Assembly (NCBI GenBank): GCA_046290385.1
Contig: JBKAGM010000004.1
Location: forward strand, 9,010-73,009
Length of the DNA stretch: 64,000 bases
Reading direction: 5' to 3'
Source: Gammaproteobacteria bacterium
Lineage (GTDB): Bacteria > Pseudomonadota > Gammaproteobacteria > JAGOUN01
Position 1 is the first letter of the stretch. The number at the start of each line of letters is the position of its first letter. Positions 5,775 through 63,514 of this stretch are shown one piece after another. The position numbers were made by a program, and so were the translations under genes. Under the pieces are notes generated by a model. That model saw only the letters and a list, made by a program, of their open reading frames with translations. It made no database searches and was not told the origin of the DNA.

Positions 5775-5977
5775 CTTGTTCTCCTGAATTATATTTCTCT
5801 CTATTTCCCAGACAGATTTCAAATGACAACCAACAGCAGAATGTTAGGTTTTAAAGGAAGAATTTAGAATTATTATTTTTGTTACTTCCGTTTATGTTTC
5901 CTATGATCGCTCATTTTAATGTCACTTGTAAGATCTCATTTACTATGGTAATTTACTGGGGTAATTTACATTTTTTT

Positions 5978-7312
5978 ATGGAAAAAATCATGGAAAAAGT
6001 TATTTTTCAACAAGTTACATGGGAATCTGTAGCCAAGCGTGTTCGCACCGTCAACCCAGAACTCCATAAAATTATTTGCGACTTAAGCCCAGATGATAGC
6101 TACCGTCTATATACTGGTGAGTATCCTTTTGGCTGTGAGTTTGTGAAAGAAGGAAGATTTCAATTGCCTACAAAAGGTGATGAATTAAGACCGCTCACGG
6201 ATCCAAACATTCCAAAACAAATCCAAGAAGATTTAAGTTATAACGAGGGTACCAATCCTGCGTGTTTACTCTTGAAAAATAGCATTGAAATTTATATGCT
6301 TTCATCTTTATTTCACGTTATTGGTTGGACTATTCCAGAAGGAGGCATTCTTGGAATCTCTCGCGTGTTAGCTGAAAATCCTCAGCATCCACCATTTCTT
6401 TGGAACATCAGCTCTGGAGCACGTTCTTTAATCATGTTGCCAAAAATATCTCGTGCTCGGAATCATCAGCGATTGCGTTCTGAACTAGGTATCAACATTG
6501 AAAAACCTGATTCGATATTTAAACACTGGGAAGTATTTAAAAGTATCGCAAACTGTGGAAAATTTAAACCTTGGTCTTCTAAAATATTATTTTTTTCTAA
6601 AAAATGGTTTGAACGTTTAAAAGATCCCGCGTTTCAAAGTTTTAGATGTTACTTATTAGAAAATAACAGAAAAAGATTTGACTATATCGGCAATATGTAC
6701 ATTTGGGAAATGGTCTTTAGTTTAATATTAAAAAATCGTGATATCAGACCAAGTCTATATACAAACAACTGCGCCAAATATCTTTTTCAGCTTGCAATGG
6801 GAATGACACCAGGATTAGCGCCAGCAGTCAATAATGTTTCTGCCCCTATCAAGATGTTACAAAAAGCATATATAGATATTTACGGGCTGAAAGACTACGT
6901 GCCAACTATTATGCAACCTAATTATTTCAACCCTTATGAACCCTGTGATTCAATATATCATTCTTTACAAACTCCAACATTTTTTGATACTCCTAAAAAG
7001 CGGGACAACAGCAGTTTGATATCCGACCTTTATGACATATATGCTCTATTTAATAAGTATATTTCATACATTAGAACAATGAAACTGAATATTGAAGGAA
7101 GCGCATTACATCAATCAGCACTTAACACACAAGTTGATGCATTACATCCAAGTCCAGAACGATATACCCCCATTAAATCATCTAAAACTATATTAGCAAA
7201 TGATAAAAGATTTAGTCAGTGTCTTTATCCAACAAAATATAATGAAGTTGCTATTAACAGCACCTTACTCAAAGGGTGCTTTCGGTTTTGTTATTATGAA
7301 AACAAAAAATGA
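5978..7312 (+). CDS. hypothetical protein (about 440 aa, no recognisable domain)
   Basis: Long ORF 5879..7312. The start is probably MEKIMEKV at about 5978-5990. No motifs identified by eye. Confidence 0.45.
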   Translation: MEKIMEKVIFQQVTWESVAKRVRTVNPELHKIICDLSPDDSYRLYTGEYPFGCEFVKEGRFQLPTKGDELRPLTDPNIPKQIQEDLSYNEGTNPACLLLKNSIEIYMLSSLFHVIGWTIPEGGILGISRVLAENPQHPPFLWNISSGARSLIMLPKISRARNHQRLRSELGINIEKPDSIFKHWEVFKSIANCGKFKPWSSKILFFSKKWFERLKDPAFQSFRCYLLENNRKRFDYIGNMYIWEMVFSLILKNRDIRPSLYTNNCAKYLFQLAMGMTPGLAPAVNNVSAPIKMLQKAYIDIYGLKDYVPTIMQPNYFNPYEPCDSIYHSLQTPTFFDTPKKRDNSSLISDLYDIYALFNKYISYIRTMKLNIEGSALHQSALNTQVDALHPSPERYTPIKSSKTILANDKRFSQCLYPTKYNEVAINSTLLKGCFRFCYYENKK

Positions 7313-9514: not shown

Positions 9515-10435
9515 TTATCCAAAAACCGCTTCCAAATTCTTTTGCATCTTAACGTATTTTTCGGATGACATTTTTTGAATATTTTTTATTTTCCAAGATA
9601 AAGCTGGGAAATTTTTCAAATCGAAATCCATAAACTCCCAATCAGGCTGGCTTGCATTAACAGATAATAAAAATTCTTTATCTTTTCTAGAAATTTTTGT
9701 TTTAACTAAATTTACCAATGTCTTTCTCGTGGTATCCAAATCATGATAAGTTATCTCCATATTCGTCATTCCTGAAAACTCCTTAGCATAAGTTTTCGAC
9801 AAATCTAAAAAATTAGGATTAAGCAACTCATGTATGGGTCTTCCGCCACACGCAATATAAACAACAATGGCGCTTAACAAATCGGTACTAACTCCTTCAT
9901 TCTCTAACAGTAATTTAACATCAAATAAATCTCTTGGATGTTGCCTATCGAGTGCTGCGCATATTTTTCCAGCATATAGATCCTCATGCGAAACCACAGG
10001 CATATCTAACACGCTTAATCCAAATAAATTTTCAGCAGAAGAGCATAGTCGTTTATACTCAACTGGAATTAAAACACCACGTACAACATCATTAACCTCA
10101 ATCTTAATTTGCACATGATTAGCGATGATAAATAATTTAATAGCTGTCTTATGGTGTCGATGCTCTTGTATAAGAACTCTTACATTCGGTATATATTTTT
10201 CGACATCATGTTTTATAAGAAAAAGTGATTTTTCAATATTTAGCATTGCCTCTTCTCTTGACTTTTTTTCTAGATATACTAAATCAATATCGACAGACAA
10301 TCGTGGCATTTCTCTAACAAATAAATTAATCGCTGTACCGCCTTTTAAAGCAAAACAAGACTGTTTCGCTACAAATGGCAAGACGCGCAATAGTAACCTG
10401 ACTTGTTGGTAATAATATTCTTCAAATTCATGCAT
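9515..10435 (-). CDS. AbiEii/AbiGii-family nucleotidyltransferase toxin (type IV TA / abortive infection)
   Basis: LKGGTAINLF...RLSVDIDLV (GGTAL NTase motif I) and KICAALDRQHPRDLFDV (RDLYD motif III). The ORF call 9515..10501 begins upstream. The start taken here is the ATG at 10435, which overlaps the upstream gene stop as ATGCATGA. Confidence 0.75.
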   Translation of the reverse strand: MHEFEEYYYQQVRLLLRVLPFVAKQSCFALKGGTAINLFVREMPRLSVDIDLVYLEKKSREEAMLNIEKSLFLIKHDVEKYIPNVRVLIQEHRHHKTAIKLFIIANHVQIKIEVNDVVRGVLIPVEYKRLCSSAENLFGLSVLDMPVVSHEDLYAGKICAALDRQHPRDLFDVKLLLENEGVSTDLLSAIVVYIACGGRPIHELLNPNFLDLSKTYAKEFSGMTNMEITYHDLDTTRKTLVNLVKTKISRKDKEFLLSVNASQPDWEFMDFDLKNFPALSWKIKNIQKMSSEKYVKMQKNLEAVFG

Positions 10436-11234
10436 GAGACTCATCCTTAAATACATCTTCCGGCAAAGATAATTCATGTTTTGGATAATAAACTCCTCCA
10501 CCTGAGATCACGCGCTTTCCTTTGCCAAAGTTTATTTTTTCTAAATTTAAATACTTAAACCAATTATGTCGCTCATGCTCTGAAAAAAGTAAAAATAAAC
10601 GTTTTACTTTGACAGAAGTGCAATGCTCTAATAAATATTGAAAAACGTCAGATCGACAAGAATGTAATCCCTCAAATAATAATTTTGTTTGAGATAATGA
10701 AATTTCCTCAGGAACTAATGCCAATGTTTCTAAGATGGCCCGCTCAACACATGACATCTTGACATGGTATTCGCCGATGGCATGTCCAATCAATGTGTCA
10801 GATAAATACGAAGAAAATAATTTTTTATGCGTCACATAAATAGATGCGTTTTTTGAAAACATTTTTTTAAACCACTTAGGTAAGGTCATACCAACCTGTG
10901 GATGTTGAAAAAGATATAATGGCTCCTTCGCCTGCATCGGCACAAAGTGAGCAAAACCCAAACGCTCTAATGCAGACCGACCTCCTATATGTATAGGTAG
11001 TTGTAAATGCTGTTGTAGTGCATATAACGCACCTTCTGGGCGTATTTCATCACCTTCTCTGGCATAAACACCAGGCGCCAAACGCATTAGCCAGTGGTGC
11101 TTCACATAACTATCAGCAAGTTGACGATAAATACCTTGTTGATTTAATGCGTTTTGCACGGCAATTGTTCCTTTTGGCCAGTGTTTTAATAGATAGTTTA
11201 ATTTTCCATTTTTTTGTCTACTCATACTTGTCAT
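10428..11234 (-). CDS. AbiEi-family antitoxin/transcriptional regulator (type IV TA system)
   Basis: 268 aa; an N-terminal AbiEi_4-like segment (GIYRQL...WLMRLAPGVYA) sits immediately upstream of the AbiEii gene, which is the canonical order. The two genes are translationally coupled. Confidence 0.6.
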   Translation of the reverse strand: MTSMSRQKNGKLNYLLKHWPKGTIAVQNALNQQGIYRQLADSYVKHHWLMRLAPGVYAREGDEIRPEGALYALQQHLQLPIHIGGRSALERLGFAHFVPMQAKEPLYLFQHPQVGMTLPKWFKKMFSKNASIYVTHKKLFSSYLSDTLIGHAIGEYHVKMSCVERAILETLALVPEEISLSQTKLLFEGLHSCRSDVFQYLLEHCTSVKVKRLFLLFSEHERHNWFKYLNLEKINFGKGKRVISGGGVYYPKHELSLPEDVFKDESHA

Positions 11235-11652: not shown

Positions 11653-13188
11653 ATGGCCAATGCATTTACAGAAACAGTCATCACACCTATCAAAGCCATG
11701 CGACTACGCTATGTGCCATTATTAATGATTTATTTTGCATATGGCGCTTCTGTCTTTTCAGGTATAGCTGAAAGCTTTTTTATTAAGGAACGTTTAAATC
11801 TACCCGCACACGCACTTATGATGATTGCTGTTTGGATAAGTATTCCTTGGTCGATAAAAATGGTCTTTGGTCAATTTGTCGATTCCGTGCCTTTTTTAAA
11901 ATCCACACGACGAAGTTATGTGTTTTTTGCTGCAGGCTTGATGGCAATCGGAAGTCTATTGATGGCGGGATTAGCAGGAGAATGGACGTGGATCCTGGCA
12001 ATGGGTTCAGCCAATGCTATATTCATCGTTGCGAGTTTAATTACTGTTTTTGGCGCCGTATTACAAGATGTCGTCGCAGATGCGATCTCTGTCGAAGTCG
12101 TCGATCGTGAAAACCGTAGTGAAGAAGAGATTCGTCATGAACTCGCAATGGTGCAATTATTAGGACGTTTGTCGTTAAGCATCGCTATTTTTTTAGTATC
12201 GGGTCTTGGTGGATGGCTCGCTCAAATTTATTCTTATCAAACAATATTTTTACTGACGCTCATTGTGCCAATCATCTCTGTGACTGGGGCTCTATTCATC
12301 CAAATTGATATCCCACAAATCAAACCCATTAATCGTAAGGTGTTTTTAGGTGGTCTCGCATATGCTGCTTTCGTGACAAGCATGGCTTTTTCACAATTCC
12401 CTGGGCATCAAGAAATTATTCTTGTTGTAAGCTTAATTATCGTGAGCATTTTATTATTCTCAATTTTAGGTGATGTCGATCATGACACACTGAAGAAAAT
12501 CCTTTTTGCAGCTCTCGTAATCTTTATCTATCGAGCTATGCCACCTGTAGGACCTGGATTACAATGGTGGGAAATTGATGTGCTTGGTTTTAATAAGGCT
12601 TTTTTCGGAACGCTTGCGCAAATAGGCTCAGGACTTGCCATTGCTGGAATGTGGTTTTTTGCGAAATGGCTAACAGAAAAGCCTATCGGGTGGATTCTAT
12701 TAATTTTAACACTTGTTAGTTTTATTTTAAGTTTACCTGTGATTGGCATGTATTACGGTTTACACGAGTGGACACAGGCAAATTTCGGATTTGGAGCACA
12801 TACTATTGCACTAGTGGACACTGCGCTCGCTTCACCTTTCGCACAAATGAGCATGGTGCCTATGTTAACGCTTATTGCTATCCATGCACCTCGCGGAAAC
12901 GCAGCAACGTGGTTTGCCTTGATGGCCTCACTCATGAATTTAGCACTCACGACAGGCAACTTAGTTAGCAAATGGTTAAATCATATCTGGGTAGTCACAC
13001 GTGAAGTTAAGGACTCCGCTGGAAATATTGTCACACAAGCAGATTACACGTCCTTAGGTCATTTATTATGGAGTACAACTCTTGTTGGTTTAATTCTTCC
13101 TCTGATCGCTACTTTTCTTTTTCTCCGGCAGGATGTTTTCTCGATTCGCCAACAAACTTCTACGACGACGCCAGCGAATAACAGTTGA
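11653..13188 (+). CDS. BT1/folate-biopterin transporter family MFS membrane protein
   Basis: 511 aa, about 12 TM. IPWSIKMVFGQFVDS matches the PWxIKPxxGxxSD motif of the FBT/BT1 family. Confidence 0.55.
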   Translation: MANAFTETVITPIKAMRLRYVPLLMIYFAYGASVFSGIAESFFIKERLNLPAHALMMIAVWISIPWSIKMVFGQFVDSVPFLKSTRRSYVFFAAGLMAIGSLLMAGLAGEWTWILAMGSANAIFIVASLITVFGAVLQDVVADAISVEVVDRENRSEEEIRHELAMVQLLGRLSLSIAIFLVSGLGGWLAQIYSYQTIFLLTLIVPIISVTGALFIQIDIPQIKPINRKVFLGGLAYAAFVTSMAFSQFPGHQEIILVVSLIIVSILLFSILGDVDHDTLKKILFAALVIFIYRAMPPVGPGLQWWEIDVLGFNKAFFGTLAQIGSGLAIAGMWFFAKWLTEKPIGWILLILTLVSFILSLPVIGMYYGLHEWTQANFGFGAHTIALVDTALASPFAQMSMVPMLTLIAIHAPRGNAATWFALMASLMNLALTTGNLVSKWLNHIWVVTREVKDSAGNIVTQADYTSLGHLLWSTTLVGLILPLIATFLFLRQDVFSIRQQTSTTTPANNS

Positions 13189-13653
13189 AAGATACCACAC
13201 TATTCTCACCAACACATACCCTAATGCACCAGAAATAGCACCTACAACAAAACAGCCTAACAAAAATGGCATGGCAATATTACTAAAATTATTTGAAAAC
13301 CAACCAATCGTACCATCAAACGGGGTTGGTTGAATCTCCAAAAGAAAGCTTCCCACCTTATAAGCAAAGTAAAATAATGGCGCCGCCGTCAGTGGATTCG
13401 TTAATAAGGAGACAATAAAAGTCAATGGCAGATTACTATTAAAAATAATAGCGCATATCGAAGAAAGAACAATCTGTGGCGGAATAGGAATAAACGCGCA
13501 AAATAGCCCAATACCTATCGCTCGAGACACAGAAGCGCGATTTAGACGCCACAAATTAGGCTGATGCAAAGCACGTCCAAAAAACTTCATAAAAGGTTTT
13601 TGATTTATGGACTTATGATCTGGCAAGTATTTTTTTAAAAACTTAATTAACAT
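13090..13653 (-). CDS. DUF2062-family membrane protein
   Basis: RAIGIGLFCAFIPIPPQIVLSSICAIIF resembles the DUF2062 core. The start is taken at the ATG overlapping the upstream stop (TAATG); the ORF call extends to 13728. Its 3' end overlaps the convergent BT1 gene by about 99 nt. Confidence 0.5.
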   Translation of the reverse strand: MLIKFLKKYLPDHKSINQKPFMKFFGRALHQPNLWRLNRASVSRAIGIGLFCAFIPIPPQIVLSSICAIIFNSNLPLTFIVSLLTNPLTAAPLFYFAYKVGSFLLEIQPTPFDGTIGWFSNNFSNIAMPFLLGCFVVGAISGALGYVLVRIVWYLSTVIRWRRRRSLLANRENILPEKKKSSDQRKN

Positions 13654-15002
13654 TAAATGATTTCCAAGCCTCGAAGAAAAATAAATAAAATAGCTAGCGG
13701 CGCTAAAATTCTTATCAGCCAATACCACGTACGAAATTTCAGTGTTTTGGAAGAAAATTTTAGTTCATGAGCAATCAAACTCTTGGTCATAAACCAACCC
13801 ACCAACAACGCCAACAAAAAACCACTAATTGGTAATAAAATGCTAGATGTCACAAAATCTAGTGCTTCAAAAAAATTCTTCCCAAACCATTTCTCTTGTG
13901 CCCAGATATTAAAAGATAAGATTGTGCCCGTGCTTAAGAATAAAATCACAACGCCACAAATAATAGCAGCATGCATTTTTTTTATATGTAATGTTTCTTT
14001 TAGCCAGACAACTGGTGCTTCTAAGAAACCTAAACATGAAGTAAAAGCAGCAAAACCTAGCATGACAAAAAAAAGCGTCGCAAAAAAAGTACCAGAAGGC
14101 ATATGGCTAAAGGATAAAGGCAGTGCTTCAAAAATTAAACCCGCACCTGCCGCTGGTGAAATCCCTTGAGCGAAAACAATGGGAAAAATGATCATTCCTG
14201 CACATAGCGCAATAGTAGTATCCAACAAACAAATTATCACAGACGTACGTGTAATCGAAATATTTTCAGGAAGATAAGCCCCGTACATCGCTACAACACC
14301 TAATGCGATACCTAAACTAAAAAAAGCCTGTCCTAAGGCAACTAAAACTGTCTTACCTGAAACGTGCTGTAACGATGGTTTAAACAAATAGGCCAAGGCA
14401 TGAGAAAATTGACCCGTATGTCCCGCATAAAATAACAACAACAGCAATAACATCACAAAGACTGGAAAAATGAAGACAACAGCACGTTCTAACCCTTTTT
14501 TTACGCCTGCGCCAACGACAATAACCATCCCAATAACAACACAAAAATTAAAAATAAACATTAATCCAGGATGCTGCATTAACGTTTGATAATATCCCCG
14601 GGATTGCGCTTCGGTGATATGTTCAAAATGTCCTGCTGCTGCCAAGTATATATATTCCAATAACCAACCACTGATAACACTGTAGTACGACAAGATGAGA
14701 AAACCGGTTAATATGCCTAGAGCACCTGCACAATACCATAGAGGTCGCATCGGCTTTTTTGAGGCAAATGCGAATGATTTTGCAGGATTATGCCGACCAT
14801 ATCGTCCAACTAAGACTTCACCCATCATTAAAGGAATACCAAGCACTATGACACAAAGTAGATAAAAAAAGACAAAAGTACCGCCTCCATTGGTACCTGT
14901 GATATATGGAAATCGCCAAATATTACCAAGACCAACAGCAGCGCTACCAGCTGCCATAATATAACTTAGTTGAGATTTCCACTGTGGTTTCGTTCGTTCC
15001 AT
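13653..15002 (-). CDS. neurotransmitter:sodium symporter (NSS/SNF) family Na+-dependent transporter
   Basis: GLGNIWRFPY NSS signature near the N-terminus; 449 aa, about 12 TM. Confidence 0.85.
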   Translation of the reverse strand: MERTKPQWKSQLSYIMAAGSAAVGLGNIWRFPYITGTNGGGTFVFFYLLCVIVLGIPLMMGEVLVGRYGRHNPAKSFAFASKKPMRPLWYCAGALGILTGFLILSYYSVISGWLLEYIYLAAAGHFEHITEAQSRGYYQTLMQHPGLMFIFNFCVVIGMVIVVGAGVKKGLERAVVFIFPVFVMLLLLLLFYAGHTGQFSHALAYLFKPSLQHVSGKTVLVALGQAFFSLGIALGVVAMYGAYLPENISITRTSVIICLLDTTIALCAGMIIFPIVFAQGISPAAGAGLIFEALPLSFSHMPSGTFFATLFFVMLGFAAFTSCLGFLEAPVVWLKETLHIKKMHAAIICGVVILFLSTGTILSFNIWAQEKWFGKNFFEALDFVTSSILLPISGFLLALLVGWFMTKSLIAHELKFSSKTLKFRTWYWLIRILAPLAILFIFLRGLEII

Positions 15003-15014
15003 GATCGTCTATTT

Positions 15015-16412
15015 TTAAATATCCCTTTTTAGTCTAACCCCATGATAAATATAAAACAATATAACAGGTGCGATCATAATGACAATGCCACTAGTAAACG
15101 CGATAATGTAATGCATATGTCCACCAACATCTATGGAATCTGGAGGGAAAAATCCAACAATAAGTGTGACAACACAACCGAACAAACCTAACAAACCAAC
15201 CACACATGTTCCAAATTTCCCAAATGGTATAGCAAATGGGCGTTCTTGATCAGGATATTTAAACCGCAGACGAATCGCGCTAACGAACATTAAGAGATAC
15301 ATCAGCATGTATAACTGCGTGCTCAAGTCTGTAAGCAGCCAATATGATGCATTCACCGTTGGCATAAACAAAAAGGCAACACAAATTAAACTCACTAACA
15401 AAGCTTGTATAATAAGGACGTGGGCTGCGACACCATAACTATTTTCTTTGGCAAAATAGTCTGGCATGAAATGATATTTCGCCGCACGTAACAAACCTTT
15501 AGCTGGCGAAATAACCCAGTTAATCATTTCCCCAAAGCTACCTATTAATATCATTATCATTAAAACAGGTAATAAAAATTTCAAATGATATCCAGAGAAA
15601 AACACCCCAAAGGCTTGCATTACACCATCAACGATATTAATTTGATCACGAGGAATAACTATTGCAATAGCGAAAGCGCCCATAATCATGGTGATCAAAA
15701 TAATTAACACAGAATAGAACATTGCCTTTGGAAATGTTTTTTGAGGATTCTCAACCTGCCTTACATGAACGGTTGCCAACTCCATTCCTAAGAATGCTGT
15801 CATAATAGCCGTCAATGAAATCCAGCTTTCCGAATGGCCCATTTTTGGCAGTAATGTATCTAGTTGAAAATGTAAATGTATAGGTTTTCCCATGACTAAC
15901 CACGTCATTGAGAACCCAATAATCAGCAGAACGGGAATAATAAACCCTAAGACACAGCAAATACTGGCAAAGCGTGCCGAAGTCTTTATGCCATACAAAT
16001 TAATGATGGTGATAGCCCAAAATGAAATCAAAATGATGGACACTAGATAAACTCTATTCTCTACCAACGCAGGATCTATCAAAAAGGCAATAGTCCCTGC
16101 AATAAACGATAATATAGTAGGAAACCATACCATCGTATTGATCCACTGCAACCATATTGCTAAAAATCCCACCTTATTGCCAAAGGCCATACGCGTCCAA
16201 TCAAACACGCCGCCGTATTCTGTCCATGCAGAAGAAAGTTCTGCTGAGATAAGCGCAGCGGGAATAAGAAAAACAACCGATGCAAAAATAAAAAAGAAAA
16301 TTAATGTGTCGCCAAACAACGCCGTCGCCGGCAAATTACGAATACTATCGATGGAGACAACGATTAACATCACCAACGCGAATGTAGAGATTTTTTTGGT
16401 AGCAGTTGTCAT
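15015..16412 (-). CDS. APC-superfamily amino acid permease
   Basis: 465 aa, 12 TM, typical APC permease layout. Confidence 0.75.
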   Translation of the reverse strand: MTTATKKISTFALVMLIVVSIDSIRNLPATALFGDTLIFFFIFASVVFLIPAALISAELSSAWTEYGGVFDWTRMAFGNKVGFLAIWLQWINTMVWFPTILSFIAGTIAFLIDPALVENRVYLVSIILISFWAITIINLYGIKTSARFASICCVLGFIIPVLLIIGFSMTWLVMGKPIHLHFQLDTLLPKMGHSESWISLTAIMTAFLGMELATVHVRQVENPQKTFPKAMFYSVLIILITMIMGAFAIAIVIPRDQINIVDGVMQAFGVFFSGYHLKFLLPVLMIMILIGSFGEMINWVISPAKGLLRAAKYHFMPDYFAKENSYGVAAHVLIIQALLVSLICVAFLFMPTVNASYWLLTDLSTQLYMLMYLLMFVSAIRLRFKYPDQERPFAIPFGKFGTCVVGLLGLFGCVVTLIVGFFPPDSIDVGGHMHYIIAFTSGIVIMIAPVILFYIYHGVRLKRDI

Positions 16413-17581
16413 TCCCTTTCCTTTTTCATTGACGGCTTTTTAGGACTGTATGCAAAAGCTGGACTTTGCATAGCATAAAAACGCCGATATTCCTCGCCGA
16501 GCGGTCCCGACAAAAATGCTTGGCTGTTAACTAATTGTATAATACCTTTCGTTGTTAAATCTACATGATACGTATTACGAAAATCATACTCTAGCTGCCA
16601 ATGAGCCGCACTTCCTTTATGCAAAGGCAAATAATATACGCGAAAATCCTCAAGCACACCCGTAACCGGTTCGTAATCGTAAACTTTTATTCCTGGATTA
16701 TTTCTTACAACGGGACTAATTGATGGCGATGTAAATACAACTGATTGATGATTGTTTGGAAGTGATAAAATTGAAAATCCATCGGTATGCACGTGGCCAG
16801 CAAAAAGAGCCTGGATGTTATTTCTATGTTTTTCAATAATACGGAAAAATTCGCGCAAATAATCCTTTTGCCAAAACGTCTCTTTAATTGAGTATTTCGC
16901 ACGTTTGTATTCATTGATTGTTGGCGGAATATGCATAGCAACCCACGCAACTCGATGCAACTTTTTTGCTTCATCAAGAACTTCATTCAACCATTGCAAT
17001 TGGGCCTTTGCGTCTGTTACATGTTGCCTACGATCTGGATCTCTTATGCTAAATAAATTGGCATTCAGCGTGATTAATCTAATATTTGAATTTGGCAAGT
17101 CTCTGTAATAATATCCTGCGTGTTTAAAAGTTTCTATACTATCATGATCAAGAACATGATGTTTTATTTTTGCAGCATTTGATAAAAAATCACCATCAAC
17201 AACTGTCAATGTATTGCCGCCGTAATTATCATGATTACCCATAGTGATATAAATTGGCGTCTCCGGAAAAATGTTTTGAACCGAATTTATTAGTGATTTT
17301 AAAAGGTCATTTATGTAGGCTTTCGATTGATGAATGCCATGAGGATAATAATCACCCAATAATAAAATTTCACTTGGATGTAACTCTCCAGAAGTTTTTA
17401 AATGCCTTAACTCATTTAGTGTCGATTGCCATAAAAAGTTATTTGTTTCATAACGGTATCCTGGATAATGTTTTTCTAGATTAAGCGCATCATAATGAAT
17501 ATCTGTTAACGTTAATAATTGTGAGGCAGAAAATACTTGCGAAAAACAGAAAAAGCATATTATAAATATTATTTTTTTCAT
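16409..17581 (-). CDS. secreted calcineurin-like metallophosphoesterase, acid-sphingomyelinase-like phosphodiesterase type
   Basis: Signal peptide MKKIIFIICFFCFSQVFSAS. Metallophosphoesterase motifs DIHYD, GDYYPHG, GNHDNYG, HIPP and GHVHTDGF, the last resembling the GHTHxDEF of the ASM/SMPDL3 family. Confidence 0.65.
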   Translation of the reverse strand: MKKIIFIICFFCFSQVFSASQLLTLTDIHYDALNLEKHYPGYRYETNNFLWQSTLNELRHLKTSGELHPSEILLLGDYYPHGIHQSKAYINDLLKSLINSVQNIFPETPIYITMGNHDNYGGNTLTVVDGDFLSNAAKIKHHVLDHDSIETFKHAGYYYRDLPNSNIRLITLNANLFSIRDPDRRQHVTDAKAQLQWLNEVLDEAKKLHRVAWVAMHIPPTINEYKRAKYSIKETFWQKDYLREFFRIIEKHRNNIQALFAGHVHTDGFSILSLPNNHQSVVFTSPSISPVVRNNPGIKVYDYEPVTGVLEDFRVYYLPLHKGSAAHWQLEYDFRNTYHVDLTTKGIIQLVNSQAFLSGPLGEEYRRFYAMQSPAFAYSPKKPSMKKERE

Positions 17582-18711
17582 AAAATTTTAAACTCTATGG
17601 TTTCTTCAACATGCTTACGCAAGTATTCAATAAAAGGCGTTCCGCCAGTACCAACGCCAGTAGGATTAGCATCGGATGCTTGACTTTGTTTATGGATATA
17701 CTCGATAGCATAACTTAAATGCGTTTTTCGGAATCTTGCCAAAAGATCAATACAATCATTATAAATTTTTTTTAGCTTCAAATCTCCAGAAAGCACTTGT
17801 TCTCGTACATTCGTATTTTTTTCCACATACTCTAGTAACATTCGATGATTCTTTGGCATGTAACCACGCATTTCCTGCAAATATTTTTGCAACATATCTT
17901 TCTTATGCTCGATACCCAATAGCGCATCACACATAGGAATGATAGTACTTTGCGCGCCAGTTTCACCACGAAATTTTTGAGGCTTCCCTTGATATTCTTC
18001 AACTCCCTCATAAATTAAGCCTTCGGGTAATACGGGATTATTCAACCAACCATGAATATAAGGACGAACACGTTGATAATAAATATATGGGTCACAACGC
18101 TCGGGTATACGATCGAGCGCTTCACAAATAGCGTTAAGGGCGTTTACTATTGGTTGAAGTGCCTCTCCTAATCCTATTTTATTTTCAACAATGATCAATA
18201 CATTCTTTACCAAAGCTTCGGCTTTAGCTTCGATATCGACATGCACCAAAACAAACCATTCCTCATCCTGTCCACCTAAAAAATTTTGCAATAATGCGAT
18301 GTTGCCTAATTCAATTGGTCCTTGTGGGTTTAAGCGCATCCAATTATAAAGTGCGTAAGATGCATAAGATAACACAGGGGGACGCTCTAAATATTTCGCT
18401 ACTTGATACCAAGGCTGTGCTAACACTTTAGGTAGTACATCAACAGCCGGATTTTCACCCCAAACATATGCGTGCCCCAAATACGACAAAATTAGCATTG
18501 CGCGTTGATAATGAGATTTATCATTTAATTGATTAATAGGAAATTCTGGTAACGATTTTATCTTGTTACGTAAAGTCGTGCTCATTAACCATTTTGGTAA
18601 TGTGCGCGCAATATCTTCCCAGGGTTGAAAAATAGAAGGAAGTATTGGAATTGGATCTTGTTTTGGTAGGAATCCACGTGTTAATTCTTCGAATGCCATA
18701 TTGAGCTCCAT
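17578..18711 (-). CDS. indoleamine 2,3-dioxygenase (IDO) family haem dioxygenase homologue
   Basis: Collinear blocks match human IDO1: AYVWGE, PPVLSYASYALYNW, GLIYEG...GETGAQS (vs GGSAGQSS), YLQEMRGYMPKNHR (vs FLQDMRRYMPPAHR), VREQVL, a conserved proximal His in RFRKTHLSYAIEYI, and GTGGT near the C-terminus. Confidence 0.8.
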   Translation of the reverse strand: MELNMAFEELTRGFLPKQDPIPILPSIFQPWEDIARTLPKWLMSTTLRNKIKSLPEFPINQLNDKSHYQRAMLILSYLGHAYVWGENPAVDVLPKVLAQPWYQVAKYLERPPVLSYASYALYNWMRLNPQGPIELGNIALLQNFLGGQDEEWFVLVHVDIEAKAEALVKNVLIIVENKIGLGEALQPIVNALNAICEALDRIPERCDPYIYYQRVRPYIHGWLNNPVLPEGLIYEGVEEYQGKPQKFRGETGAQSTIIPMCDALLGIEHKKDMLQKYLQEMRGYMPKNHRMLLEYVEKNTNVREQVLSGDLKLKKIYNDCIDLLARFRKTHLSYAIEYIHKQSQASDANPTGVGTGGTPFIEYLRKHVEETIEFKIL

Positions 18712-18756
18712 CTTAGCCGATATTATAATACCCTTTTAGGCGCACAAGGAAAAGAC

Positions 18757-19451: not shown

Positions 19452-20072
19452 ATGGCCACTATTACTAAAGAACTTGATAAAATCATTAAAAAACAACCGG
19501 TTAACCGCCCGAGTCGTGAAGAGGCAAAAGCGGCCGTAAGAACATTGCTTGCCTACGTCGGCGATGATCCTAATCGTGAAGGTCTACTGGATACTCCCAA
19601 ACGCGTAATCGACGCTTACAGTGAATTATTCAAGGGTTATGACGAAGACCCTGAAGCAATTTTAAGCCGCACATTCGAAGAAATTCATAATTACGACGAG
19701 ATGGTGCTGCTCAAAAATATGCGTCTAGAATCGCATTGTGAGCACCACATGCTGCCGATTATCGGCGTGGCTCATGTGGCCTACATGCCTAGAAAACGCA
19801 TTGTGGGTATTAGCAAATTGGCACGTCTGGTAGACACATTCTCAAAACGCTTACAAACTCAGGAAATTATGACAGCTCAAATCGCCGATACAATTCAAAG
19901 CGTGCTTGATCCTATCGGTGTAGCAGTCGTTATTGAGGCTGACCATCAATGCATGACGATGCGCGGCGTTCACAAACATGAAACAACGACGGTAACGAGT
20001 CGAATGCTAGGCTTGTTCCGAGAAAACGCTAAAACACGTATGGAATTTTTGACGCTTATTGGTAAGGGTTAA
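19452..20072 (+). CDS. folE: GTP cyclohydrolase I
   Basis: [18 protein letters not shown] catalytic region; 206 aa. Confidence 0.9.
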
Positions 20073-20073
20073 A

Positions 20074-20484
20074 TTAGTTCTCTCTAAACTCTTTTTCCTT
20101 AATTTCCATAAACGTTTTGCTATCGACAGAAAAGCGCGCGGTCGGGCGTAGCAACAATCGTTCTATGCCGATCGGCTCACCTGTTTCCTCACAATAGCCA
20201 TAGTTTTCTTCACTAATTTGTTTCAAGGAATAACGTATTTTAGGAAGTAACTTCGTTTCACGTTCGATAATACGCAGTTTAATCATACGCTCTTCTTCAC
20301 GAGATGCTAAATCAACTTCATCAGCGGGTTCATTCGACAGCTCGCTCAATTCTTTGCGTACAACATCGATGTGTGCCATTGTTTCTTTTTCTAGCTCAAG
20401 CAATAGCGTCTTAAAGAACTCCAGTTGTTCTTTATTCATATATTTGCTCTTTGGCATTCTTTTTAATTTGGATATTGTTAACAT
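20074..20484 (-). CDS. DksA/TraR-family RNA-polymerase-binding regulator, cysteine-free variant
   Basis: Coiled-coil tip ADEVDLAS (DxxDxA) and a C-terminal ...IGIERLLLRPTARFSVDSK aligning to the DksA zinc ribbon, with the four Cys replaced. Confidence 0.65.
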   Translation of the reverse strand: MLTISKLKRMPKSKYMNKEQLEFFKTLLLELEKETMAHIDVVRKELSELSNEPADEVDLASREEERMIKLRIIERETKLLPKIRYSLKQISEENYGYCEETGEPIGIERLLLRPTARFSVDSKTFMEIKEKEFREN

Positions 20485-37690: not shown

Positions 37691-39016
37691 TCATAAACTT
37701 TCAAATTGCTCCTTGGACAATAATCCATTTACCAGCACAGGATAATGTTCCCTGATATAACCACGAAAAACACTCCGAACAATGCTATGTTCTAATCCAT
37801 TACGATGATATAAGTTCAACATCATTTGATTGTTCTTCTCTTCTAAACTTGAAATAAAACTCCTTTCCATAACTCGCTTTTCTGTATCTGGTAATAATCG
37901 ATATGCTTTCTCTATAAAATCGACAACATAATGCTGATAACGATTCTTTAATGCTTCATCATGCTTTCGTTTCTGTTGAAGCTTCAACATCTCTTTTTCT
38001 TTTTCAAGATATTGTGACTCTAAATGCTGTCGGCTCGATTTCGCTTGATAATCACCGCGTAATGCACTTAGAAAATAAGCCGCGAGATTATTGATTTCTC
38101 CCTTCTTAAAGCTTGATGATTGCTCAACAAATGAAATTTTTTCAGCAATACGCTCTTCTCCAAAGTCATTAAGAAGATCAGCAGCCTGTGTCTTGGTAAA
38201 ACCAAAGGTTTTGAGTTTTGCAATATATGCTATTTGATCTTCAGTGAGTGCGTAGCTCTCCAATTCAGTTTGTCCTATACGATTACGTTTTTCTCGAGCA
38301 CTGAGTTTAAATCGAATTTGTTTAACTTGTCGGCGCTCTTTTTTAATTTCGGGTTCAACAATCAAATCTGAAAACGCATTTACCTCCTCTATTGATTTGT
38401 CGAGAACACGTCTTTTGAAATCTCTAAAAATATCGTATTTACCGGAAGGCACTCCCATTAATTTGCGAAAAACATCGAGTTCAAACCATTTCGTTGACGA
38501 CAACCCTTTGTAGCGAACACAATTTTCATAAAGTGCGAGTCCATAACTAGATTTAAATTTAGACTGAATGATGAGATTAATTTTACCGTATACGGAAGGC
38601 GAGTAAAGCAACTCTTTCATTCTTGGACTATACGCATAATAGCAATTAGGCCCTTTTATGCTTACGCTGGCAATAATTGTACTTGCTGTCCAATCTTCTT
38701 CAGAACAATTATCATTGACTACGTTCCATTCAACAATCGTTGATACAAGCCCACGTAATGCATCTTTTATGACGCCGTGATTATTTCCTCTATACCCAAT
38801 AATCTGACATAATTCCCGGATGGTTATTTGATGCTCTTCAACGTTTTTCAATTCTGGGTAGGCATGGAACAGCAGCGCATTATTAATTTTGCGTTGTAGC
38901 AAAGTCAACATGCCAGAACTATGTATCGCAGCAGTATGTTTTTTTAACTCACCGTTCTTGCGTGCGATCTGGCCTTGCTTACTTTGTGTTGATTTTATCA
39001 TTCCTTGATCCTGCAT
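37691..39016 (-). CDS. iteron-type plasmid replication initiator protein (Rep_3-like)
   Basis: 441 aa. The N-terminal region resembles Rep_3 initiators, and the gene lies immediately downstream of five iterons. The C-terminus is a Lys/Glu-rich coiled region. Confidence 0.55.
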   Translation of the reverse strand: MQDQGMIKSTQSKQGQIARKNGELKKHTAAIHSSGMLTLLQRKINNALLFHAYPELKNVEEHQITIRELCQIIGYRGNNHGVIKDALRGLVSTIVEWNVVNDNCSEEDWTASTIIASVSIKGPNCYYAYSPRMKELLYSPSVYGKINLIIQSKFKSSYGLALYENCVRYKGLSSTKWFELDVFRKLMGVPSGKYDIFRDFKRRVLDKSIEEVNAFSDLIVEPEIKKERRQVKQIRFKLSAREKRNRIGQTELESYALTEDQIAYIAKLKTFGFTKTQAADLLNDFGEERIAEKISFVEQSSSFKKGEINNLAAYFLSALRGDYQAKSSRQHLESQYLEKEKEMLKLQQKRKHDEALKNRYQHYVVDFIEKAYRLLPDTEKRVMERSFISSLEEKNNQMMLNLYHRNGLEHSIVRSVFRGYIREHYPVLVNGLLSKEQFESL

Positions 39017-39024
39017 TGACTACT

Positions 39025-39132
39025 CCCACAAACGTCACATCTTGTCCCATAAGTGTCACACGACTATCCCATAAGTGTCACACTTTTTTCCCATAAGTGT
39101 CACAAAACATCCCACAGATGTCACACTTAACA
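39025..39132. repeat. five direct 21-22 bp iterons (candidate plasmid-type origin / Rep binding sites)
   Basis: Units start at 39025, 39046, 39068, 39090 and 39111, with core cccaYaaRtgtcaca. Three units are identical (cccataagtgtcaca). They are followed by an AT-rich stretch at 39133-39300. Confidence 0.7.
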
Positions 39133-39305: not shown

Positions 39306-40178
39306 TTGTGTCATATGAAAGTTATTGCTGCAGTAAGTAATAAGGGAGGCGTTGGAAAAACAAAACTCAGCGCATTATTAACAGAATATTTAGCGAAGTA
39401 TACAAAGAAAAAAGTTTTAGCTATCGATTTTGATCCGCAATGTAATTTTTCTTTGCGTTACTTGCCTATGGAGATGGATCCAGCAGCCCCGGAAGGTTTA
39501 ATGCCACCTATTCATCCCGATTACAACCCAGACGAAGATGAAGAGTGGGATGGCCGCAGCAGTATTGCAGATATTTTCTTTGGACAAGGTGTTGTTCCAT
39601 ATCCAACTTTTATCAAAAATGTAGATATTGCGCCTGGACATGCTGAACGTTTGTTAGCCGCAGAAATGGTGCGCAGAAGTGAAGTTGCTGAAAGAATTCA
39701 CAGGCAGCTTAAAATATTTTTAAATTCCCCAGATTTGCAAGAAGCGTATGATGTCGTTATTGTGGACACCGCTCCTTCAAAAGGACCATTGACTGTAAGC
39801 GTAATTAAGGCGGCCACCGATATTGTTATTCCTTCAGTAATGGAAGAACAACCTATTCAGGGGATATACGGTATGTTACAACTTTGGATGCAGGAATCAT
39901 TTAATCGAAAATCCGATAACCCATTGAATTTAGTAGGAATATTGCCAAACATGTTTAAAAACACAACGCTACATCGCGATATGTATGAGTCGTTGTTGAG
40001 TAATGAGGGTATTGGTAAGTATATGATGCCAATGAAAATAAGCCAGCGGATTGTATATGCTGAAATTGATTCAGAGGATGCAAGCCCAAGAACGATTTTT
40101 GATTTACCTGATAATCACATTGCGAAACGTGAAGCGGTAACTGTTTGTGAATACATCATGAAGGAGGTGTTTGGATGA
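39306..40178 (+). CDS. parA: ParA/Soj-family partition ATPase (plasmid type)
   Basis: Deviant Walker A KGGVGKT; the start is probably MKVIAAV at 39318; insertion-bearing relative to chromosomal Soj. Confidence 0.85.
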   Translation: MCHMKVIAAVSNKGGVGKTKLSALLTEYLAKYTKKKVLAIDFDPQCNFSLRYLPMEMDPAAPEGLMPPIHPDYNPDEDEEWDGRSSIADIFFGQGVVPYPTFIKNVDIAPGHAERLLAAEMVRRSEVAERIHRQLKIFLNSPDLQEAYDVVIVDTAPSKGPLTVSVIKAATDIVIPSVMEEQPIQGIYGMLQLWMQESFNRKSDNPLNLVGILPNMFKNTTLHRDMYESLLSNEGIGKYMMPMKISQRIVYAEIDSEDASPRTIFDLPDNHIAKREAVTVCEYIMKEVFG

Positions 40179-41194
40179 GTAAGAAAAAACGTTTTGGAAT
40201 TTCCCAAGCAATGGGACGAGGGCTGACGGATACCGTTAATCTGGTTGAACGTAATCCTGGAAAATTTAGAAGCGGCATGATTCCGATGTCGCGCATTGAG
40301 ACAGATCCTGACAACCCAAGGCAACTATCATTAAATATTCATGATATTCAGCAGGGCCTTAATAAAAATGATCCGGATTATGAGCGCAAACGAACAGAAT
40401 TTGAAATGTTAGAGGAGCTTGCCGAGACCATTAGAAAAAGTGGCATCATTAATCCTATTGTTGTATATAAGCGCGATCAAAATTATCGAATTGTTGCTGG
40501 TGAAAGGCGTTTCTTAGCTTCAATGATTGCCGGAAAAACAGAGATTGATGCCAGAATTTATAATGAAAAACCAATTGGATTAGACTTAAAGTTAGTGCAA
40601 TGGTATGAAAATACTGCAAGGGCAGACTTGTCATTACATGAGCGTGTGCAGAATGTAGAGGAGCTTATCAAGGCCTATGTTAAACGTTTTTCAGATCAAT
40701 CTATTAATGACGCGAAAGATTTAAAAGAACTCGTTGGGCTTTCACTAAACCAAGCACGCTATTACCTTAACGTCATAAAAGCTCCAGAAGATGTAAAGAA
40801 CGCAATCGCGAATGGACAAATCAATAGCCTGGACAAGGCGGCTGCCATAGCGAATGTGGGATCAAATGATATTCGCACGAAAGCATTATTCGCTTGTCTC
40901 AATGGTGCTTCTTTGAAAGACATTCGGGCAGTTATTGCTAGAGAGAAGGAAAATCAATCAAGTTTAGCCACATCGCTCAAGTCTGAGTCTCGTGGACGAG
41001 CACCCCAATATATTCAGTTGGGAAAAACGAAACACTTCGCGGTAGTGAGGGAGATTATTGAGGCAGTTTTGCGCGATGCAAAATATTCACATCATTCTAA
41101 GGCTTTTGCCAATGCTGAATGGGATGATTATGCTAATGTCAGCACGACATTCAAAGAATTTCTTAAGATAGTAGAATTAGAGACAATGGAGTAA
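40175..41194 (+). CDS. parB: ParB/RepB/Spo0J-family partition protein (plasmid type)
   Basis: ParB N-domain PIVVYKRDQNYRIVAGERRFLAS; the start overlaps the parA stop by 4 nt. Confidence 0.8.
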   Translation: MSKKKRFGISQAMGRGLTDTVNLVERNPGKFRSGMIPMSRIETDPDNPRQLSLNIHDIQQGLNKNDPDYERKRTEFEMLEELAETIRKSGIINPIVVYKRDQNYRIVAGERRFLASMIAGKTEIDARIYNEKPIGLDLKLVQWYENTARADLSLHERVQNVEELIKAYVKRFSDQSINDAKDLKELVGLSLNQARYYLNVIKAPEDVKNAIANGQINSLDKAAAIANVGSNDIRTKALFACLNGASLKDIRAVIAREKENQSSLATSLKSESRGRAPQYIQLGKTKHFAVVREIIEAVLRDAKYSHHSKAFANAEWDDYANVSTTFKEFLKIVELETME

Positions 41195-41720: not shown

Positions 41721-42524
41721 TTATTTTCCTTTATCTTCGACATTGGCCGTGAAACCCATTTTAGAGAATACGCCATCAAGGATGTCGATATTGTGAAAGT
41801 GGATTTTAATCATACCATCGCCCTCATCGAATTCGATATCCGTTTTACAACCTATATGATCAGAAAAAGCTTTTTCCAAGTTTTTAATATCAGGGTCTTT
41901 TTTGGTGATTAGTTTTTGTTTTGCAGTTTGTATTTTCTTTATTTCTTGTTCGATTTTACGAACACTCCATCCTCGGGCAATGGCTCGTTTTGCTAAGTCT
42001 ATCTGTTGTTTATGTGCGAGCACGGCGAGTACTTTGCCGTGACCTTCGCTTAGTCGGCCCTCAATAATGAGCTCTTGTACGGAATTATCGAGTTTTAAGA
42101 GTCTTAATGAGTTGGTAATTTTAACGCGTGATTTACCTACGGCTGCAGCGACCTCGTCATGGGAGTAATCGAATTCATTGATTAATCGCTGATATGCATT
42201 GGCCACTTCAATAGGGTTTAAATCCACTCGATTGATATTCTCAATCATGGCCGCCTCAGCCGCTTGTTCATCACTATAGTGTTTAATAATGCAGTTAATA
42301 GTATCTATGCCAGCTCGTTGAGAGGCACGCCAGCGTCGCTCACCAGCAATAATTTCATAATGACCGCCCTTTATAGGTCTGACGACGATAGGTTGTAATA
42401 AACCTGCTGATTTAATAGAGGCCGCTAGCTCTTCTAGAGCTTCTTGATCAAATTCGTAACGTGGTTGATAACGGCCACGTTGAATTTGATCAATAGGGAT
42501 TTGACGTAAGTCTAGTTTTGTCAT
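41721..42524 (-). CDS. parB: chromosomal-type ParB/Spo0J partition protein (orphan, no adjacent soj)
   Basis: Canonical Spo0J motifs: GERRWRASQ, IENINRVDLNPIEVA, a SLRLLKL HTH, and LSEGHGKVL. Confidence 0.85.
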   Translation of the reverse strand: MTKLDLRQIPIDQIQRGRYQPRYEFDQEALEELAASIKSAGLLQPIVVRPIKGGHYEIIAGERRWRASQRAGIDTINCIIKHYSDEQAAEAAMIENINRVDLNPIEVANAYQRLINEFDYSHDEVAAAVGKSRVKITNSLRLLKLDNSVQELIIEGRLSEGHGKVLAVLAHKQQIDLAKRAIARGWSVRKIEQEIKKIQTAKQKLITKKDPDIKNLEKAFSDHIGCKTDIEFDEGDGMIKIHFHNIDILDGVFSKMGFTANVEDKGK

Positions 42525-62904: not shown

Positions 62905-63080
62905 TGTTTATTATTGGGTGATAGTGAGATTTTCTCTTACTATCATCCACTTAAAATTTTTTTAAAAAAACCTCTTCACATTTCAATAATTTTTGTCTAG
63001 AATACTCAAATACCGCAAGGGGCGGTATGACATCTCTTCTAGGAGATGTACCGAGACAAGGATCAGTCGGAGGTGCTATA

Positions 63081-63514
63081 TGAGCATGGAACGCGAAAAT
63101 ACTTTTCAAGGCTTTACGCCATATCAATTAAATTCTAATGAAACCTACATGAATGACTCACAGTGCGAGCATTTTCGTAGTATTCTCCTTAACTGGAAAG
63201 CAGAGCTCTTACAGAGCGTCGCAGCCACGTTAGAGGAAATTAAGCAGAATCAGCAATATTGCCCAGATGAAGCTGATATGGCAGCAAATTCAATTCTATT
63301 TAATTGGGAGATGGTTAGTCGTGATCGTGATCGTCGATTGATGAAAAAAATTGAAGAATCACTCGAGCGCATCAAACAAGGTGAATATGGTTATTGTGAG
63401 GAATGTGGGATCGAAATAGGCATTCCACGTTTGGAAGCGCGTCCAACAGCATCAAAATGCTTTGATTGCAAAACAGTTGAGGAAATAAAAGACAAGCATC
63501 GTGAGTGCGCATAG
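63081..63514 (+). CDS. dksA: RNA polymerase-binding transcription factor DksA (canonical, C4 zinc finger)
   Basis: Tip DEADMAA, then GYCEECGIEIGIPRLEARPTASKCFDCK four-Cys zinc ribbon. The ORF call 62993..63514 begins upstream; the start is probably MSMERE. Confidence 0.85.

Follow-up and report, generated by a model that had tools for sequence, protein, structure and literature searches.

A five-gene cluster joining an indoleamine 2,3-dioxygenase homologue to two predicted amino-acid transporters and an SMPDL3-like phosphoesterase, unrepeated among the loci compared

Gene organization of the cluster

We analysed a 64,000-nt stretch of contig JBKAGM010000004.1 (assembly GCA_046290385.1, an uncultivated, AT-rich gammaproteobacterium), referred to below as the window. 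Five minus-strand open reading frames, running from 18711 down to 13090, form a closely packed cluster headed by a homologue of indoleamine 2,3-dioxygenase (the haem enzyme IDO), followed by genes for a metallophosphoesterase (MPE) of the acid sphingomyelinase (ASM)/SMPDL3 type, an APC-superfamily permease, an NSS-family symporter and a DUF2062 membrane protein. A previous interpretation made from the letters alone (the sequence-only reading) had described these same five genes. Their coordinates and spacing are reproduced by the list of open reading frames and by an independent gene call, and all five family assignments are upheld by profile searches. The features are as follows.

17578 to 18711, minus strand: IDO-clade haem dioxygenase; 377 aa from the ATG at 18711, 373 aa from the likelier ATG at 18699
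16409 to 17581, minus strand: ASM/SMPDL3-type metallophosphoesterase (MPE), exported by prediction; 390 aa, no saposin domain
15015 to 16412, minus strand: APC-superfamily permease of the GadC/TyrP (glutamate/GABA-antiporter) family; 465 aa
13653 to 15002, minus strand: NSS symporter, Na+-coupled, MhsT-like (hydrophobic/aromatic amino acids); 449 aa
13090 to 13653, minus strand: DUF2062 membrane protein; 187 aa from the ATG at 13653
18722 to 18727, minus strand: TATAAT hexamer resembling a -10 element, candidate promoter of the cluster (the hexamer is read directly, its function only presumed)
15058 to 15085, minus strand: promoter-like site TTGTCA-16-TATATT with TG, 10 of 12 matches, within the 3' end of the APC gene

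The junctions were said to consist of overlaps of 1-4 nt and one 12-nt gap, and this is what is read directly. The stop codon of the IDO gene and the start codon of the MPE gene share the sequence ATGA, a 4-nt overlap (-4), and the same ATGA arrangement joins MPE to APC (-4). The step from APC to NSS is the sole junction without an overlap, with a gap of 12 nt (+12) and a weak Shine-Dalgarno sequence for NSS, while NSS and DUF2062 meet in TAATG with an overlap of 1 nt (-1). The ATG of the APC gene is preceded by a strong Shine-Dalgarno sequence, AAGGAAAGGGA. A separate assembly of the same contig (Logan SRR22269038_74, L086), subjected to an independent gene call, yields five products of identical lengths with identical junctions.

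The only correction to these coordinates concerns the first gene, whose reading frame (18711-17578) stands as originally given, although its start codon probably does not. GGAG lies 6 nt 5' of the ATG at 18699, no Shine-Dalgarno sequence lies ahead of 18711, and the NCBI annotation (P0001) has the protein as 373 aa; hence, the ATG at 18699 is more likely to be the true start, giving a predicted protein of 373 aa.

The cluster is bordered upstream by a divergent NYN-domain gene, 45-57 nt from the IDO gene, and downstream by a convergent gene of the BT1 (folate/biopterin transporter) family. The DUF2062 gene (end 13090) and the BT1 gene (end 13188) overlap by 99 nt (window 13090-13188), on which both gene callers concur. 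The GC content of the five genes (0.35-0.385) and that of their third codon positions (GC3, 0.27-0.38) match the remainder of the window, and so do not point to a recent insertion of foreign DNA.

The dioxygenase belongs to a conserved bacterial clade

The first protein of the cluster matches the IDO family profile PF01231 at 324.6 bits (cut-off 26; E 1.1e-96) over profile positions 10-410 of 412, and its best matches among solved structures are IDO2 and IDO1 (E 3e-56 to 1e-52). An AlphaFold2 model built with 53 homologues (pLDDT 89.2) was compared with the PDB by Foldseek and again found IDO2 and IDO1, with TM-scores of 0.88-0.91, E 4e-24 and approximately 31% identity. The assignment to IDO, which had been called strong, is thus borne out by both profile and fold.

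The protein was aligned with human IDO1 and 119 bacterial homologues. The proximal haem ligand, His331 (His346 of human IDO1), is invariant in 120 of the 120 aligned homologues. The substrate-anchoring residues are present as R216 (Arg231), Y116 (Tyr126) and F153 (Phe163) and are essentially invariant in the alignment, as are R328 (Arg343), D262 (Asp274) and the GTGGT of the JK-loop (G354-T358), which includes the equivalent of Thr379. The retention of the proximal histidine and of other haem-pocket residues, also anticipated from the letters, is therefore confirmed. What is not matched is the distal pocket of IDO1, where Ser167 is replaced by His157, Cys129 by Tyr119, Phe226 by Tyr211, and Gly262-Ser-Ala-Gly265 by Glu-Thr-Gly-Ala. 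These substitutions are common to 119-120 of the 120 bacterial homologues and are also found in the more distant IDOs encoded on Sphingobium and Methylocystis plasmids. Tryptophan 2,3-dioxygenase (TDO) carries a histidine at the distal position corresponding to IDO1 Ser167. The mean column identity of the bacterial clade is 62% across phyla, and conservation this high implies a specific, selected function.

Relative to human IDO1 and IDO2, the window protein therefore has the same fold (TM-score of about 0.9), haem ligand and substrate-anchoring residues, but it is only 31-33% identical to them, is about 25 residues shorter, and has a histidine in place of Ser167 of IDO1 (threonine in IDO2). 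We consider it somewhat more probable than not that it binds haem and oxygenates tryptophan (Trp) or a Trp-like indole; that it catabolizes Trp efficiently is uncertain.

The sequence-only reading had treated IDO as the eukaryotic enzyme, and this premise does not stand. By word-indexed search, at least 7,568 significant homologues of the window protein were retrieved; the best 120 of these, from metagenomes and metagenome-assembled genomes (MAGs) across bacterial phyla, are 54-62% identical to it, versus 33% for human IDO1. A genome scan located 187 loci that encode IDO homologues, the best 80 of which belong to Nanopelagicales and other Actinomycetota, Myxococcota, 'Deltaproteobacteria', Bryobacteraceae, Binatia, Verrucomicrobiota, Fimbriimonadia, Bacteroidota and Parachlamydiaceae. 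The best 120 homologues span Actinomycetota, Myxococcota, Chlamydiota, Acidobacteriota and Proteobacteria. A recent transfer of IDO from a eukaryote to a bacterium is ruled out by the 54-62% identity to bacterial proteins against 31-33% to human IDO1 and IDO2, together with GC and GC3 values that are local. In a literature search, we found no paper in which IDO in Legionella is described as a eukaryote-like gene. The presence of IDO in a bacterium, contrary to the initial premise, does not imply that it works in a eukaryote-like or host-mimicking way.

Bacterial IDOs have been on record since 2011 (Yuasa, Ushigoe & Ball, Gene 485:22, as cited in PMC4191572 and PMC4217691). The window protein resembles them in its full-length PF01231 match, proximal histidine, Arg/Tyr/Phe contacts and GTGGT loop, and in that the dioxygenase gene is not linked to other genes of the kynurenine pathway; it differs by heading a transporter-containing cluster, which is seen in no other member examined. 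According to Ternes and Schoenknecht (PMC4217691), only one of three branches of the IDO tree is efficient on Trp, and it includes the enzymes of mammals, fungi, Gemmatimonas aurantiaca and Streptomyces scabiei. Trp turnover is very low for the IDOs of Erythrobacter litoralis and of the gammaproteobacterium Neptuniibacter caesariensis, which lie outside this branch (PMC4217691). Such conserved enzymes of low efficiency were discussed by Ball et al., who suggested other substrates or reactions.

The arrangement is not repeated at the other loci compared

About 90 IDO loci were compared with the window: 85 by tblastn (80 genome loci and five contig loci), and three contigs and two plasmids by their gene lists. 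A tally by kind of record gives 80 genome loci, seven metagenome contig loci and two plasmid loci. When eight other local window proteins were searched by tblastn against the 80 genome loci (8 kb on each side of IDO), none was found at E 1e-5; with the five contig loci added and the threshold set at E 1e-2, the search gave only a 22%-identical permease in one MAG locus (L083) and a spurious 58-residue match. Near IDO homologues, the MPE, the NSS symporter, the DUF2062 protein and a GadC-like APC permease were thus found at 0 of 85 loci by tblastn, on 0 of three contigs and on 0 of two plasmids. The same holds when the comparison starts from the symporter, as the cluster partners are absent from four of four loci that encode NSS homologues (the closest at no more than 50% identity), where NSS stands alone in four contexts.

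A Pfam census of 141 immediate neighbours of IDO homologues gave a heterogeneous set, led by oligopeptide ABC ATPases (11), aldehyde dehydrogenases (9) and M13 peptidases (8), and the 119 second neighbours are likewise heterogeneous. Neither list of the top 25 families, for first or for second neighbours, contains SNF, AA_permease, Metallophos, DUF2062, kynureninase or cyclase-type formamidase. Five of the nearest homologues on usable contigs (58-61% identical; L081, L082, L091, L092 and L093) were also looked up. Their IDO genes adjoin, respectively, a TolC/MacAB-like exporter; OmpA and Fic genes; an ABC2 exporter and OsmC; DLH and a nucleoside hydrolase; and DJ-1. The two plasmid-borne IDO genes, of Sphingobium and Methylocystis, have neighbours unrelated to the window cluster.

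A neighbourhood conserved in no relative was one of the outcomes that the sequence-only reading had named as refuting it, and for every relative that could be located this is the case, as the arrangement occurs at none of the approximately 90 IDO and four NSS loci. As no second instance turned up in any of the sequences compared, the cluster appears to be an isolated operon made up of ordinary family members. As far as the comparisons can tell, its components are further members of known families, the MPE being rather divergent, and their combination is unique but unconserved. We therefore lean, by a modest balance, towards a lineage-specific cluster of ordinary family members rather than a conserved functional module.

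Several points weigh against this preference. All IDO relatives in the databases are at most 62% identical to the window protein. Genes packed very tightly on one strand are in most cases, if not in all, functionally related, and a Trp-type NSS symporter with an exchanger-family APC permease would supply the requirements of a system that takes Trp in and lets a product out. Furthermore, in L083 (gammaproteobacterial MAG GCA_033763845.1, 4219-10750), genes for saccharopine dehydrogenase, aldehyde dehydrogenase and acyl-CoA dehydrogenase precede IDO on the same strand, and a PF00324 amino-acid permease gene lies directly downstream of it. Apart from the window, no IDO gene was seen next to a permease gene elsewhere, and the L083 permease differs from the window APC protein; the adjacency hints at a recurrent link between IDO and transport, and the run as a whole suggests an amino-acid catabolic context for IDO.

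In two of the loci looked up, the genes directly adjoining IDO are those of ABC-type efflux systems. In L081 (1186-7451), an IDO homologue of approximately 60% identity lies on the same strand beside genes for OEP, a membrane-fusion protein, an ABC protein and an FtsX-type permease; in L091 (4076-8143), one of approximately 60% identity lies on the same strand beside a membrane-fusion protein, an ABC protein and an ABC2 membrane protein. Sample SRR33375185 contains both an IDO homologue (L082, 58%) and an NSS homologue (L088, 49%), on different contigs and in unrelated contexts. The L082 contig also carries DotI/IcmL and Fic genes; if both contigs come from one Legionellales-like organism, IDO and NSS are unlinked there.

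One transcript or two

Intergenic distances of -4, -4, +12 and -1 nt are associated with co-transcription in operon-prediction work. The operon-like character first proposed from the spacing is upheld: the genes lie on the same strand at these distances, and terminator-like sites within the cluster (4) are not above the number in shuffled sequence (6.0 +/- 2.5). Promoter-like sites in the region number 22, against 24 +/- 5.7 in shuffled sequence. The promoter and terminator scan hence performs no better than shuffled sequence, and speaks neither for nor against a single transcript. The whole window was also scanned for Rfam families and tRNAs without a match, so that neither a riboswitch nor a leader was found in front of the cluster.

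Very probably, the cluster is read either as one unit or as IDO-MPE-APC plus NSS-DUF2062. Judging from the junctions, the IDO, MPE and APC genes at least are likely to be co-transcribed and translationally coupled, and the same is probable, with somewhat less assurance, for all five genes. Transcription would start from a promoter in the 45-57 nt that separate IDO from the NYN gene and yield a polycistronic mRNA, on which the ATGA and TAATG overlaps would couple the translation of neighbouring genes. The two permeases would then bring in amino acids, and IDO, holding its haem via His331, would oxidise an indole substrate, either L-Trp or a Trp derivative. The candidate hexamer in this region, the minus-strand TATAAT at 18727-18722, overlaps the plus-strand -10 element of the divergent NYN gene (TTGAGC-17-TATAAT), and no good -35 element was found for it.

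The cluster could also comprise two units, IDO-MPE-APC on the one hand and NSS-DUF2062, read from an internal promoter, on the other, such that NSS would not be co-regulated with IDO. The notion of such a split arises because the best internal minus-strand promoter match (15085-15058; 10 of 12 positions, with a TG extension) lies 56 nt 5' of the NSS start, and thus falls at the sole junction without an overlap, that with the 12-nt gap and the weak Shine-Dalgarno sequence. Nevertheless, a terminator-free gap of 12 nt is typical for operons, and the match may be due to chance, given that the total count of promoter-like sites does not exceed the shuffled expectation. Read-through from upstream would in any case be compatible with an internal promoter. 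We thus regard the division into two units as unlikely, and prefer a single transcript of five genes.

The two transporters and the case for tryptophan

The APC protein matches AA_permease_2 with E 2.9e-70, and its closest solved relative is GadC of E. coli (4dji, E 2.8e-59). It scores 418 and 401 bits against the NCBIfam GadC models, under their cut-offs of 650 and 640, and 298 bits against the TyrP model, under its cut-off of 630. From these scores, it is a predicted GadC-family member and not a GadC equivalog. No decarboxylase or glutaminase that might partner a GadC was found by Pfam scans in the 64-kb window. An acid-resistance pair of the gadBC type is ruled out, since the window has no such enzyme and the permease falls under the equivalog cut-offs.

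The NSS protein matches SNF (PF00209) with E 3.7e-44 and NF037979 with 113 bits (cut-off 50). MhsT is by far its closest solved relative (4us3, E 1.2e-82, residues 5-448), in agreement with the kinship to carriers of Trp and other aromatic amino acids that had been proposed for it. The signature of transmembrane segment 1, AVGLGNIWRFPY, is present. In the unwound part of segment 6, the protein has A-L-G where MhsT has G-M-G, which satisfies the (G/A/C)-hydrophobic-G rule for this segment in SLC6/NSS members that carry amino acids (bioRxiv 10.1101/2020.04.03.022970). MhsT has been crystallised with Trp (bioRxiv 10.1101/2020.04.03.022970), and another NSS homologue, TnaT, transports Trp (PMC2494555). 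Nevertheless, carriers of the MhsT type are broad-range and accept hydrophobic amino acids, so that Trp is only one among many candidate substrates. The last protein of the cluster matches DUF2062 (PF09835) with E 1.9e-40, and matches the model for Brucella BspA only weakly (23 bits, cut-off 300).

An amino-acid carrier beside an amino-acid-modifying enzyme is a familiar arrangement: gadBC, tyrDC-tyrP and adiAC are operons of an APC antiporter and a decarboxylase, and tnaT adjoins the tryptophanase gene. The window cluster is like these in placing an APC exchanger and an NSS symporter beside such an enzyme on one strand; it differs in that the enzyme there depends on pyridoxal phosphate, whereas here it is a haem dioxygenase, and in that the arrangement here is not conserved. 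The bacterial kynurenine operon, kynA-kynB-kynU, is TDO-based. Its first reaction would be that of the window cluster, if the window IDO is active on Trp, but its dioxygenase belongs to another family, and the window cluster lacks a formamidase and a kynureninase. Pfam scans found neither of these, nor any other kynurenine-pathway gene, in the 64-kb window. A kynurenine-pathway operon is ruled out by the absence of formamidase and kynureninase.

A rival explanation is that the five genes form a dedicated Trp module, in which NSS would import Trp with Na+, IDO would convert it to N-formylkynurenine, and the APC permease would exchange Trp for the product, comparable to LAT1 and IDO1 in mammals. 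As regards the enzyme, every haem-binding and every Trp carboxylate- and ammonium-binding residue is retained, but the distal pocket of its clade differs (S167H, C129Y, F226Y, GSAG to ETGA), and the enzymes of E. litoralis and N. caesariensis are very slow on Trp (PMC4217691). The symporter has as its closest solved relative a protein co-crystallised with Trp, and TnaT carries Trp (PMC2494555), although the breadth of MhsT-type carriers tempers this. The APC permease comes from a family of precursor/product antiporters, and a mammalian carrier of the APC superfamily exchanges Trp for kynurenine (PMC1988858); its top models, however, are Glu/Gln-GABA antiporters rather than aromatic carriers, and it stays below every cut-off. 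Finally, overlapping stop and start codons tie the genes together and an IDO-permease adjacency appears again in L083, but the full arrangement is unrepeated at some 90 IDO and four NSS loci, and formamidase, kynureninase and other downstream genes were not found in 64 kb.

By analogy only, a coupling of Trp uptake, oxidation and kynurenine release is plausible, and a dedicated link between transporters and IDO is possible. However, since the arrangement is unrepeated and the window has no kynurenine-pathway gene, both this coupling and any role towards a host rest on adjacency in a single genome, and for this reason we regard the dedicated Trp module as doubtful. The sequence-only reading is thus confirmed in its observation and upheld in part in its interpretation, but its proposed Trp-catabolic or kynurenine-producing module is not demonstrated. 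The influx of Trp and efflux of kynurenine by mammalian IDO1 and LAT1 (PMC1988858) offer a conceptual parallel, in that IDO is served by an exchanger of the APC superfamily; it is an analogy only, as LAT1 belongs to a different APC family from the window permease.

A lineage-specific cluster, the reading that we prefer, is nonetheless of some use. A highly conserved IDO homologue occurs in thousands of bacteria (54-62% identity across phyla), and most of the few such enzymes that have been assayed are very poor at turning over Trp; a genomic context pointing to the substrate would therefore help. With a predicted aromatic-amino-acid symporter and an exchanger beside the enzyme, the cluster presents a cheap, testable hypothesis on the substrate of the bacterial clade, although, being a singleton, it is weak evidence on that substrate. 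Its main value lies in constructs to assay rather than in a discovered system. If a Trp-in/kynurenine-out cycle were true, it would be the first physiological context, and would provide the first transporter partners, for the bacterial IDO clade.

The phosphoesterase and the replicon

The MPE matches Metallophos (PF00149) with E 3.9e-11 and ASMase_C (PF19272) with 22.3 bits, slightly below the cut-off of 23.7. Its closest solved relatives are SMPDL3B (6e-32), SMPDL3A (9e-29) and ASM (2e-16), and the phmmer alignment with SMPDL3A extends to residue 369 of 390. The metal-binding motifs are complete: D27-I-H29 (DxH), G76-D-Y-Y-P-H81, G115-N-H-D118 and G262-H-V-H265. Its N-terminus, MKKIIFIICFFCFSQVFSAS/Q, is made up of MKK, 14 hydrophobic residues and SAS/Q, resembles a Sec signal and has no lipobox, and hence the protein is inferred to be exported via Sec. 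The description of this protein as an ASM/SMPDL3-type metallophosphoesterase is upheld by the SMPDL3B match, and its N-terminus is in keeping with the signal peptide proposed for it. Among 1.84 billion cluster representatives, its nearest relatives reach 34-39% identity and only 57 have E <= 1e-30; among 5.8 billion proteins, the nearest are 36% identical.

The MPE does not conform to acid sphingomyelinase proper (SMPD1): the protein has 390 aa, a Pfam scan gave no match to a saposin domain, and the alignment with ASM is confined to the catalytic domain. RsASML of Ralstonia solanacearum, a bacterial ASM-like protein, cleaves ATP and ADP, not sphingomyelin (PMC4140839). With RsASML and SMPDL3A/3B (PMC4140839; PDB 5kar, 5fc1), the MPE shares the core of metal motifs and, putatively, an ASM-type C-terminal region, and is likewise without a saposin domain and equipped with a putative N-terminal export signal. 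It is only about 30% identical to the SMPDL3 proteins, and no more than 39% identical to any of the 1.84 billion cluster representatives. By analogy with these enzymes, the MPE is more probably a nucleotide or phosphodiester hydrolase than a sphingomyelinase, and would work in the periplasm or extracellularly.

The replicon was characterised by its origin. A Rep3-type initiator gene (PF01051 and PF21205) lies at 37691-39016 on the minus strand, approximately 20 kb from the cluster. Immediately upstream of rep, at 39044-39128, are four 22-bp iterons (core TCCCATAAGTGTCACA), beyond which lie parA (39306-40178) and a parB-like gene (40175-41194). The minimum of the cumulative GC skew and a switch in gene orientation coincide with this Rep3/iteron origin. 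The Rep protein is nearest to those of the Coxiella burnetii plasmids QpH1/QpRS/QpDG (43.8% identity over 96%, E 1e-94); matches to it were also found on 27 Legionella plasmids. The 92-96.5 kb contig carries carAB, pyrB and dihydroorotase-like genes, genes for biotin synthesis, cytochrome bd, ClpB and LexA, and a SerA-like gene. Because such housekeeping genes share the contig with a plasmid-type origin, a chromid or large plasmid is suggested, and the cluster seems to be carried by a plasmid-type replicon or a chromid in an organism resembling Coxiellales/Legionellales. The guess in the sequence-only reading that the DNA comes from Legionellales thus receives indirect support only, via the Coxiella-plasmid-type Rep, and this does not establish that the organism lives with a host.

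This kinship bears on a further explanation, namely that the cluster serves host interaction: the secreted ASM-like enzyme would act on host sphingomyelin or nucleotides, kynurenines made by IDO would modulate the host, and the transporters would feed the system. Besides the Coxiella burnetii QpH1-type Rep (43.8%, E 1e-94), the signal-peptide-like N-terminus of the MPE and the animal SMPDL3 proteins as its best solved relatives are consistent with this, although RsASML, the single bacterial ASM-like protein to have been characterised, leaves sphingomyelin uncleaved (PMC4140839). Some near IDO homologues occur in Parachlamydiaceae or on contigs with Dot/Icm, Fic or ankyrin-repeat genes, but the clade is found mostly in free-living freshwater and soil bacteria (Nanopelagicales, Bryobacteraceae, Myxococcota). 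Moreover, the window IDO has no export signal, and Pfam scans found no secretion-system gene in the 64-kb window. We consider a host-interaction module highly improbable. The most specific scenario, in which a plasmid- or chromid-borne cycle takes Trp in and lets kynurenine out in a Coxiella/Legionella-like bacterium while a secreted SMPDL3-like enzyme might act on a host, is also improbable in our estimation, if less so.

Other features of the window

Both flanks of the cluster are pterin-related, with the BT1 gene (11653-13188) downstream and, approximately 740 nt upstream on the other strand, FolE (GTP cyclohydrolase I, 19452-20072). Approximately 5 kb from the Methylocystis plasmid IDO lies a gene for 4a-hydroxytetrahydrobiopterin dehydratase. 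The occurrence of pterin genes around IDO may be a coincidence.

An AbiEi/AbiEii type IV toxin-antitoxin pair occupies 9515-11234 on the minus strand, approximately 400 nt from the 5' end of BT1; an AbiEii pair is also found near the IDO homologue of locus L084. Beside the plasmid-type parAB genes, a second, complete ParB of the chromosomal type (ParB_N, HTH_ParB and ParB_C) is encoded at 41721-42524 on the minus strand. Three open reading frames of 477, 662 and 682 aa, at 5879-7312 (plus strand), 47606-49594 (minus strand) and 52902-54950 (minus strand), are without a Pfam match at E 1e-4. Finally, the window encodes two paralogues of the DksA family, one at 20074-20484 on the minus strand and the other at 62993-63514 on the plus strand.

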